This document shows, piece after piece, positions 7,380 through 9,558 of a stretch of 64,000 nt of DNA (positions within the stretch are counted from its first letter, which is position 1; every line of letters begins with the position of its first letter). This DNA comes from Escherichia coli (GTDB lineage Bacteria > Pseudomonadota > Gammaproteobacteria > Enterobacterales > Enterobacteriaceae), in assembly GCF_041886205.1 (NCBI RefSeq), contig NZ_CP169029.1. The stretch is one strand, 5' to 3'. The translations under genes and the position numbers were made by a program. The notes under the pieces were generated by a model. That model did no database searches and was not told where the DNA came from. It saw nothing but the letters and a program-made list of their open reading frames with translations.

Positions 7380-7542
7380 GATTCCTCCTTGCTGCCAGTC
7401 GCAACCATTTTTTATCAACCAGGCTGGCGGTATATCCGAGCAGTGTTGGTATTTCGGAAGGTTTCAGCTCCGGTTTACGCTTACGACGATTTGGTACTCT
7501 GTAGATGTGTCCGTTCATGACACGAATAAGCGGTGTAGCCAT
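7372..7542 (-). CDS. ninE: NinE-like protein (56 aa)
   Basis: Own translation [56 protein letters not shown]; start overlaps ybcN stop, stop overlaps ybcO start. Confidence 0.75.
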   Translation of the reverse strand: MATPLIRVMNGHIYRVPNRRKRKPELKPSEIPTLLGYTASLVDKKWLRLAARRNHG

Positions 7543-7951
7543 TACGCCTCCTGCTTGTCACGGAGCTGCTGGAACTCGCAGCTCTGCGGAATAGTCAGAT
7601 GGCAGCCAATATTCACCGCCCAGGCTTCAACCTTACACAGGAAGACATACATCTCTCCGGTATCAAGATCGGAGGTATGGCGTAACGACTGGATAGTGGT
7701 GATATCACCGGTTACGACATCAACCAGGTCTTTGGTTTCATAACCGAGATATGTGTGTTTGAGAGCATCTTTTACCCAAGCTGGAGTGGCGAACGTTTTA
7801 CCCCTGCTGATGAGGTATTCACTGATTTCGCTGTACCACATGTGGCTGAGTGCATTCTGGGAAAGACTGCGTTTCTCACGCCACGGTTTAAGCACCATGA
7901 ACCGCCCCGGGAATCCTGGAGACTAAACTTCCTGAGAAAGAGGTAAACAGG

Positions 7952-8278
7952 ATGACTAAAAATACTCGTTTTTCCCCCGAAGTCCGTCAACGGGCAGTCC
8001 GTATGGTTCTGGAAAGTCAGAGCGAATATGACTCACAATGGGCGACAATTTGTTCCATTGCTCCAAAGATTGGCTGTACGCCGGAGACTCTGCGTGTCTG
8101 GGTTCGCCAGCATGAGCGGGATACCGGGGGCGGTGATGGAGGGCTCACCACCGCTGAACGTCAGCGTCTGAAAGAGCTGGAACGTGAAAATCGTGAACTG
8201 CGCCGCAGTAACGATATCCTTCGCCAGGCTTCCGCTTATTTTGCGAAGGCGGAGTTCGACCGCCTCTGGAAAAAATGA
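7952..8278 (+). CDS. IS3-family transposase OrfA (HTH + leucine zipper)
   Basis: [60 protein letters not shown]…. Confidence 0.85.
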
Positions 8279-9166
8279 TGCCACTGCTGGATAAGCTGCG
8301 TGAGCAGTACGGGGTCGGACCGCTATGCAGCGAACTGCATATTGCCCCGTCAACGTATTACCACTGTCAGCAACAGCGACATCATCCGGATAAACGCAGT
8401 GCCCGTGCGCAGCGCGATGACTGGCTGAAGAAAGAGATACAGCGCGTATACGATGAAAATCACAAGGTATACGGTGTGCGTAAAGTCTGGCGTCAGTTGT
8501 TACGGGAAGGTATCAGAGTGGCCAGATGCACTGTGGCACGTCTCATGGCGGTTATGGGACTTGCCGGTGTTCTCCGGGGTAAAAAGGTCCGTACGACCAT
8601 CAGCCGGAAAGCCGTTGCCGCAGGCGACCGCGTAAACCGTCAGTTCGTGGCAGAAACGACCTGACCAGCTGTGGGTGGCTGATTTTACTTACGTCAGCAC
8701 ATGGCGGGGCTTCGTCTATGTGGCGTTCATCATTGATGTGTTTGCCGGATACATCGTGGGGTGGCGGGTCTCATCGTCCATGGAAACGACATTCGTGCTG
8801 GATGCACTGGAGCAGGCGTTATGGGCCCGTCGACCGTCCGGCACGGTCCATCACAGTGATAAAGGTTCTCAGTATGTATCGCTGGCCTACACACAGCGGC
8901 TTAAGGAAGCCGGATTACTGGCATCAACAGGAAGTACAGGCGACTCGTATGACAACGCGATGGCGGAGAGCATCAATGGTCTTTACAAAGCGGAGGTAAT
9001 ACACCGTAAGAGCTGGAAAAACCGTGCAGAAGTGGAACTGGCCACACTCACGTGGGTGGACTGGTATAACAATCGACGATTGCTGGAAAGGCTGGGCCAT
9101 ACTCCTCCGGCAGAAGCAGAAAAAGCTTATTATGCTTCCATCGGAAACGATGATCTGGCAGCCTGA
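8275..9166 (+). pseudogene. IS3-family transposase OrfB (DDE integrase domain), split by a frameshift near 8650
   Basis: ORF track shows two pieces (8275-8664 and 8675-9166) in different frames whose products are consecutive parts of one DDE transposase (…NRQFVAETT* then …[14 protein letters not shown]…). Consistent with a 1-bp indel, or with a sequencing error. Confidence 0.6.
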
Positions 9167-9270
9167 GTTCACAGATAAAACACTCTCCAGGAAACCCGGG
9201 GCGGTTCACCATGCGAAAGCATTTGCCCTCCTCCAGATAAGGCTGGATCTGCCGACCGATAGCGGTGAAG

Positions 9271-9558
9271 TTACCGCGATGTAATTTTATGCCGTCTTGT
9301 GGGAGGTTCACGCTTCACCTCCGCAGAGGCCAAACGCTGGATGCAAAAAATCGCAGGTGCATTTCTGCATCTGTGAATGGAGAAGATAGGTTGGTTTGTA
9401 TGTGCGCATAACCCCAAATCTTCATACGTTACGGTATCAAGGTAATAATCACTATTTACCTTTAGCCATTCAGTAATAAGCCTTCTCTGGCGGTTTAATG
9501 AATCACCAGACATCTGACCTGGTGATGAAAATCGCATATATGCTATGGCTTTTTTCAT
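9271..9558 (-). pseudogene. 5' fragment of a serine recombinase / resolvase gene (DLP12 YbcK-like)
   Basis: First ~50 aa (MKKAIAYMRFSSPGQMSGDSLNRQRRLITEWL…) look like a resolvase catalytic N-terminus; the rest is non-homologous and overlaps the ybcN start, implying a deletion junction. Confidence 0.5.

Follow-up and report, generated by a model that had tools for sequence, protein, structure and literature searches.

A stretch of 64,000 nt from the Escherichia coli contig NZ_CP169029.1 (assembly GCF_041886205.1), here called the window, carries an insertion sequence (IS) within the prophage gene ybcN, close to a 5' fragment of the recombinase gene ybcK. The locus raises the question of how three defects came to lie together, namely the split ybcN, a transposase gene broken into two reading frames, and the truncated ybcK. 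The explanation we favor, with a probability of about 85%, is a recent simple insertion of IS629, the transposase of which is frameshifted, beside an older and unrelated deletion.

In the proposed course of events, an IS629/IS1203-type element of the IS3 family inserted at codon 34/35 of ybcN, the lambda-Orf-family gene of the DLP12-like nin region in a decayed lambdoid prophage at att-lambda. Elements of the IS3 family move by a copy-out-paste-in pathway, through a circular intermediate and with an OrfAB protein made by programmed -1 frameshifting. An extra A in orfB would have followed the insertion, and OrfAB would then end past its DNA-binding and multimerisation part, lacking the whole DDE domain, so that the copy could not move by itself. 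The ybcK remnant stems from an older, unrelated 3.3-kb deletion (ybcK 3' part, ybcL, and ybcM) formed by illegitimate recombination.

Insertion of the element into ybcN

First, the sequences on both sides of the element were compared with public genomes. The features of the insertion site in the window were as follows.

7898-9208, plus strand: IS629/IS1203-type insertion sequence of the IS3 family, 1311 bp (one extra A relative to the 1310-bp copies)
7895-7897, no strand assigned: target-site duplication CCA, left copy (a single CCA in the empty site of strain wlxctx60, L002)
9209-9211, no strand assigned: target-site duplication CCA, right copy (a single CCA in the same empty site)
7542-7897, minus strand: ybcN 3' part, codons 35-151 plus stop (open reading frame list, empty-site comparison)
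9209-9311, minus strand: ybcN 5' part, 34 codons, with GTG start at 9309-9311 (open reading frame list, empty-site comparison)

When the IS and one CCA were removed, the best match to the flanks among complete genomes was E. coli wlxctx60 (bear faeces, Japan), with 2285 of 2287 nt identical (99.9%). The site in wlxctx60 is empty and reads ...GTTTAAGCACCA|TGCGAAAG..., with one CCA, where the window has CCA-IS-CCA. The site is also empty in the Logan contig L015 (SRR10958940), which is 100% identical to the window flanks. Because both empty sites hold a single CCA and only the IS and one CCA separate the flanks, the event was a simple insertion with a 3-bp duplication, and nothing else was changed. 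This is what the initial annotation had proposed, and the clean CCA duplication that it reported held on closer alignment. The 7-nt string CACCATG is found at both junctions (since the IS begins with TG and ends with CA, and TG also comes next in the target); given the known IS ends, the duplication reads as 3 bp.

The ybcN frame had also been described as continuous across the element. The data showed that removal of the IS and one CCA restored a 456-nt ybcN open reading frame (ORF), identical at 456 of 456 positions to ybcN of wlxctx60, and the reconstructed YbcN shared 148 of 151 residues with K-12 YbcN. As it stands, ybcN is inactivated by the insertion. The 5' part, read as an ORF, extends into the right end of the IS (9048-9311), and an exact look-up of the resulting 87-aa YbcN-IS fusion found it not on record.

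YbcN was placed in the lambda Orf (NinB) family by its sequence and by its position upstream of ninE-ybcO-rusA. Its Pfam NinB match scored 22.3 bits, below the cut-off of 23.8, which agrees with the published view of YbcN as a very distant relative of lambda Orf (PMC4118853).

Three side observations concern the ybcN 3' part. The Met35 codon was re-formed at 7896-7898, where the initial T of the IS stands in for the native one. An ORF of 118 codons remains after the insertion and is reported as a protein by gene callers. An identical 118-aa product is on record from European Nucleotide Archive (ENA) contigs that carry another ybcN insertion.

The age of the insertion was examined using the longer flanks. 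Over about 39.6 kb, the window differed from wlxctx60 by 12 substitutions and one T6/T7 indel (about 0.03%), and the segment 39001-64000 was 100.0% identical to it. Since a genome that differs by only about 0.03% in the flanks is without the IS, the insertion is very recent. The T6/T7 difference (window position 19066), the sole other indel found in about 40 kb, may be a homopolymer error in one of the two assemblies or a real polymorphism.

The same insertion was not found in any of 5,426 complete E. coli genomes. Six records that seemed to cover the insertion query were rejected, as the matches were joined from pieces with the IS at other positions. The exact 34-mer of the left junction had no match in metagenome contigs. 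Logan contig L020 (SRR9913974) matched window positions 13558-9180 at 100%, crossing the right junction and ending 29 nt into the IS. The insertion is therefore real and backed by a public read set, as this contig spans the identical right junction. The break of the contig inside the IS suggests that the element is repeated in the SRR9913974 genome. Being strain-specific and present in at least one public read set, the insertion could serve as a lineage marker.

The element and the lesion in orfB

The identity of the element was then determined from its ends, its genes and its match to named copies. Its parts were as follows.

7898-7922, plus strand: left terminal inverted repeat (IRL), TG at start (repeat finder; identical to reference copies)
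7952-8278, plus strand: orfA, 108 aa, HTH_Tnp_1 domain, intact (identical to reference OrfA; Pfam PF01527, E = 7e-13)
8233-8349, plus strand: programmed -1 frameshift signal, ALIL pseudoknot region (Rfam RF01497 ALIL, 120 bits, E = 4e-32)
8275-8664, plus strand: orfB 5' part, 127 native residues (HTH_21) and 2 aberrant ones, with TGA at 8662-8664 (ORF list, alignment, Pfam)
8654-8656, plus strand: AAA run holding one extra A where references have AA, the frameshifting lesion (global alignment to L001, L007, and L008)
8675-9166, plus strand: orfB 3' part, a 163-codon ORF in the orfA frame with the whole rve (DDE) domain (Pfam rve, E = 2e-24)
9184-9208, plus strand: right terminal inverted repeat (IRR), CA at end (repeat finder; identical to reference copies)

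The terminal inverted repeats, called intact by the initial annotation, proved to be so: the repeat finder gave one pair of 25 nt, complementary at 23 of 25 positions (TGAACC...GGTTCA), imperfect and with the 5'-TG...CA-3' tips of the IS3 family. The ends agreed with those of independent copies elsewhere, such as L001, which has its own duplication (ATA), and the annotated 1310-bp IS629. By megablast, the element was present in 4,263 of the 5,426 complete E. coli genomes, with best matches of 1310 bp at 99.9% identity. A single extra A was the sole difference from the copy on plasmid p120899_146 (L001) in a global alignment, and the copy in the phage 21 int record AF017626 likewise differed only by a single A. 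Against the mobile element in LC567824, which its depositor annotated as 'IS3 family IS629' (1310 bp, same ends), there were 6 substitutions and 1 indel over 1310 bp (99.5% identity), which falls inside the isoform definition, a full-length nucleotide identity of 95% or more with a named IS629. Related copies are named 'IS3-like element IS1203 family transposase' by PGAP, the NCBI annotation pipeline, and IS1203 and IS3411 are isoforms of IS629 (PMC3271280). From the match to the annotated IS629 and this treatment of IS1203 and IS3411, the element is classed as an IS629 isoform.

It has in common with IS629 the ends, the 25-nt inverted repeats, the 108-aa orfA, the orfA/orfB overlap, the A6 run and the ALIL structure, as well as the 3-bp target duplication and the preference for prophage DNA. 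IS629 is described as making duplications of 3-4 bp and as preferring prophages (PMC3271280); the CCA on either side, single in the empty site, falls in that range. The element differs from IS629 by the extra A at 8654-8656, which makes it 1311 bp long and splits orfB (296 aa) into ORFs of 129 and 163 codons.

The change of phase between orfA and orfB is not in itself a defect. orfA is in phase 0 and orfB in phase -1, and a slippery run precedes a structured region; the A6 run (8270-8275), the orfA stop (8276-8278) and the orfB ATG (8275-8277) are all inside the ALIL span, the score of which was well over the gathering score of 50 bits. Because the pseudoknot spans the A6 run and the overlap of the orfA stop with the orfB start, the normal programmed -1 frameshift apparatus is intact.

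The break inside orfB is a different matter. The initial annotation had placed a split into two frames near 8650 and advised alignment to reference elements. This alignment confirmed a one-A indel, the window reading GGCAGAAACGACC where the references read GGCAGAACGACC. The reading frame then adds Thr-Thr and ends at the TGA, giving 129 codons in total, and orfB homology picks up again directly 3' of the extra A in the next frame. A functional reference with the same arrangement would have spoken against a defect, but the reference copies encode an OrfA of 108 aa and an uninterrupted OrfB of 296 aa, as does the annotated IS629 OrfB. The break falls 9 residues before the first catalytic Asp of OrfB. 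The catalytic motifs, the third of them NAMAES, begin at OrfB residues 133, 192, and 227, all downstream of the break; we take these motifs to hold the D, D, and E of the IS3 family. The +1 frameshift and the TGA thus separate the rve domain from the orfB 5' part, and there is no continuous OrfB with a DDE domain. By descent the element is best regarded as a defective member of IS629, not a functional one.

Two routes of rescue were considered and rejected. Read-through in the orfA frame meets stops between 8278 and 8675, for example at the ORF end at 8635, and slippage at the AAA is not expected, as the surrounding sequence is not a slippery heptamer. An OrfAB translated from the element would accordingly be without the catalytic domain, which points to loss of activity. 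OrfAB with the DDE domain is required for IS629 excision and transposition (bioRxiv 10.1101/2023.06.07.543989). Because its OrfAB would lack that domain and an active DDE transposase is needed for both processes, the copy as sequenced is presumably not autonomous. The suggestion that the element may now be immobile therefore stands in that it should not move itself, but 'not autonomous' is the more apt term. Both IS ends match the consensus, so the element could be mobilised in trans, or excised, by the transposase of another copy.

A further consequence is improbable. If the extra A is real, OrfA and the truncated OrfAB (HTH, leucine-zipper and HTH_21 without DDE) might act as a trans-dominant inhibitor, a naturally 'tamed' transposase fragment. 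The truncated OrfAB would then bind IS629 ends without cutting and damp both the transposition and the IEE-dependent excision of the other IS629 copies of the strain.

Several points weigh against a frameshift that arose after the insertion. Position 8654 is covered by no independent data, so the extra A is without outside support, and a search of the public gene collection for the exact truncated OrfB of 129 aa gave no record. With one other indel per about 40 kb of flank, an indel arising within 1.3 kb after the insertion is uncommon a priori, at roughly a few percent. This low rate gives more weight to a sequencing or polishing error in a repeat, or to a donor copy that was already defective.

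A less likely alternative is that the extra A is such an error, produced by miscalling of a homopolymer in a repeat present in several copies. In that case the element itself would be a 1310-bp IS629, intact and autonomous, and the rest of the explanation would be unchanged. The lesion is indeed a single-base change of homopolymer length (AA to AAA) and the sole difference from hundreds of intact copies, and the end of L020 inside the IS suggests a repeated element, where consensus polishing is least reliable. The missing record of the 129-aa product fits as well. However, the assembly is not generally prone to indels, given a single other one against a near-identical complete genome, and homopolymer errors typically affect runs longer than two or three A's.

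The occurrence of the AAA run in other copies was also investigated. Among about 5,010 records, only 2-3 had a best match of 100% to a 66-nt query over the lesion. The two AAA copies that were inspected (pERL03-1416-2 and PNUSAE008406) were 95.5-97% identical to the window element, and the label 'frameshifted' given to them by PGAP lends further support to the reading of orfB as broken. As the AAA copies found elsewhere are divergent elements, the change appears to recur sporadically and not to be inherited from a common defective lineage. The two records belong to unrelated sub-types, which fits sporadic errors as well as recurrent mutation.

The same comparisons bear on another account, which we consider doubtful: the lesion is real but predates the insertion, and a defective copy was moved into ybcN in trans by the transposase of an intact one. 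The flank similarity to wlxctx60 leaves little time for a post-insertion indel, the IS ends are intact, and the related read set points to more than one copy of the IS. Against this, IS3-family transposases such as that of IS911 are generally known to prefer action in cis, so that mobilisation in trans would be inefficient. No second AAA copy was seen, and the window holds no second IS629 copy besides 7898-9208. The only AAA copies found elsewhere were 3-4.5% divergent. We retain a lesion that followed the insertion as the preferred reading.

A look-up of the 163-aa rve ORF also led to IS629 copies inactivated by other lesions, at most about 15 nt away from the same point in orfB (L021, L024, L025, L026, and L027). 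These were a G deletion, a GAA-to-TAA nonsense change, a T insertion and 12-bp deletions, just upstream of the rve ORF. A mutational hotspot near the break was not accepted on this ground, as the 163-aa query itself selects for lesions there.

The deletion between ybcK and ylcH

The initial annotation had noted a separate deletion next to the IS. We compared the IS-free reconstruction with K-12 by BLAST. The features were as follows.

9403-9411, no strand assigned: junction of a 3317-bp deletion relative to K-12 (BLAST of the IS-free reconstruction)
9308-9409, minus strand: ylcH homologue, 33 codons, intact (translation compared with K-12 YlcH; coding sequence at the same place in wlxctx60)
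9403-9558, minus strand: ybcK (serine recombinase) 5' remnant, about 50-52 codons (48 of 50 residues identical to the K-12 YbcK N-terminus)

The reconstruction matched K-12 in two blocks of 97.6% and 96.2% identity, which abut at window 9403-9411 and are separated in K-12 DLP12 by 3317 bp (about 569058-572374). The left block stops at the ylcH start and the right block starts at ybcK codon ~52, so that ybcK codons ~53-508, ybcL, ybcM, and the spacer are gone. The match at the junction is short and imperfect (3-9 bp), with TAA exact and up to 9 nt agreeing loosely.

These results corrected two details. The recombinase fragment had been said to overlap the ybcN start; the 95-codon ORF 9271-9558 does overlap it at 9311, but ybcK accounts only for its first 50 or so codons, the rest being ylcH and the ybcN start read out of frame. 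The deletion itself was borne out, but its junction lies at the ylcH start, not the ybcN start, with an intact ylcH between the ybcK remnant and ybcN. As in K-12, ylcH overlaps the ybcN start by 4 nt. In wlxctx60, PGAP calls the ybcK remnant 'recombinase family protein, missing C-terminus'.

The junction occurred in one of the 5,426 complete genomes, that of wlxctx60, without the IS. The public assembly collection has the ORF spanning it in 38 of its blocks, where the accompanying ybcN is almost always intact, at 151 aa. Since wlxctx60 and many public contigs have the deletion without the IS, it is older than the IS and independent of it. The IS lies about 195 bp from the junction, which could bring to mind an adjacent deletion promoted by the IS; a second possibility is that the short ybcK-ylcH arrangement is ancestral and that K-12 gained ybcL-ybcM. 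Both are very improbable. The junction does not abut an IS end and is found in identical, IS-free form in two prophage backgrounds, and an IS-mediated origin was rejected on the ground that the junction exists without the IS. The cut within the ybcK reading frame, at codon ~52 of 508, marks a derived state. An older deletion unrelated to the IS thus remains the preferred reading.

The two backgrounds that share the junction are represented by L014, L016, L018, and L019 on one side and by L015, L017, and L020 on the other. In one of them a cI-like repressor and YdaS/YdaT are accompanied by full-length O and P genes, and the other shares the decayed int/Ea8.5 arm of the window. The same junction in two backgrounds suggests that recombination has carried the nin module, deletion included, from one prophage to another.

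Consequences and the surrounding prophage

YbcN is described as a distant lambda Orf-family recombination mediator, and its operon is poorly expressed in K-12 (PMC4118853). Little effect is expected from the loss of ybcN in a cryptic prophage. The insertion is probably polar on ninE-ybcO-rusA. In the rus suppressor mutations in DLP12 (summarised in PMC4118853), an IS upstream of rusA in the same operon, as in the window, supplies a promoter that activates rusA, whereas the IS in the window points in the direction opposite to the operon. Near the left end of the IS, the minus strand showed no promoter-like site directed outward, and the count of promoter-like sites in the region was at chance level. 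Activation of rusA by an outward IS promoter was rejected for want of such a site on the relevant strand; polarity is preferred over activation because the IS opposes the operon and its left end offers no such site. The event is ordinary and already known in kind, a known IS in a known type of target, and has little import beyond annotation. In an annotation, ybcN would be an IS629-interrupted pseudogene, the transposase frameshifted, ybcK a 5' remnant and ylcH retained, and the prophage an att-lambda cryptic prophage with a DLP12-like nin module.

The prophage was examined by reading the ORF listing over window 6900-9900 and by comparison with wlxctx60 and K-12. To the left of the IS, on the minus strand, are rusA (6730-7092), ybcO, ninE, and the ybcN 3' part; to the right are the ybcN 5' piece, the recombinase N-terminus, and emrE. 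Farther along come, in this order, an integrase gene of 356 codons (12490-13560), a 15-nt exact match to the lambda att core, GCTTTTTTATACTAA (13634-13648), and ybhC (13695-14978). The annotated order in wlxctx60 is int, xis, Ea8.5, O fragment, ren, emrE, ybcK remnant, ylcH, ybcN...quuD, continuing with an intact porin gene, essD-rrrD-rzpD, and then trkG and tail remnants.

The gene order agrees with that of K-12 DLP12 (emrE-ybcK-ybcL-ybcM-ylcH-ybcN-ninE-ybcO-rusA-ylcG-quuD), with about 96-97.6% nucleotide identity in the shared parts. The window differs from DLP12 in lacking the 3317 bp with the ybcK 3' part, ybcL, and ybcM, and in having the IS in ybcN. It also has a Rac-like trkG segment and an uninterrupted nmpC-type porin gene. 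In place of the K-12 DLP12 locus with its intD arm, the prophage is at att-lambda beside ybhC with a lambda-type int/xis/Ea8.5 arm. Because the att-lambda core lies between the integrase gene and ybhC, the prophage is not DLP12; it is a mosaic, decayed lambdoid prophage at att-lambda, of which only the nin/lysis module is DLP12-like.

Three more independent insertions of the IS629/IS1203 type were observed within about 1 kb of the site in other strains. In the same prophage module, O157 strain AR-0428 has an IS629-type insertion in ylcH and UPEC-245U has one upstream of ylcH, both at positions other than that in the window. The ENA metagenome contigs have one at ybcN nt 55/56, in the opposite orientation to the window IS. 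The coordinates are L009 1495-2820, L010 2342-3555, and L011 1-189 (window-equivalent 9256/9257). The IS sub-types of these insertions differ from that in the window, and their orfB is intact where seen. The ybcK-ybcN interval looks like a regional target for IS629, and the window insertion and the three nearby ones add to the known preference of IS629 for prophage DNA.

Elsewhere in the prophage, trkG and the nmpC-type porin gene ('ompC' in wlxctx60) were found at window 1497-2972 and 4853-5935; in K-12, trkG is a Rac-prophage gene and nmpC is split by IS5. The replication region (10500-11425), between ren and the Ea8.5 arm, is decayed, the wlxctx60 annotation giving an O gene without its N-terminus and a frameshifted hypothetical gene.

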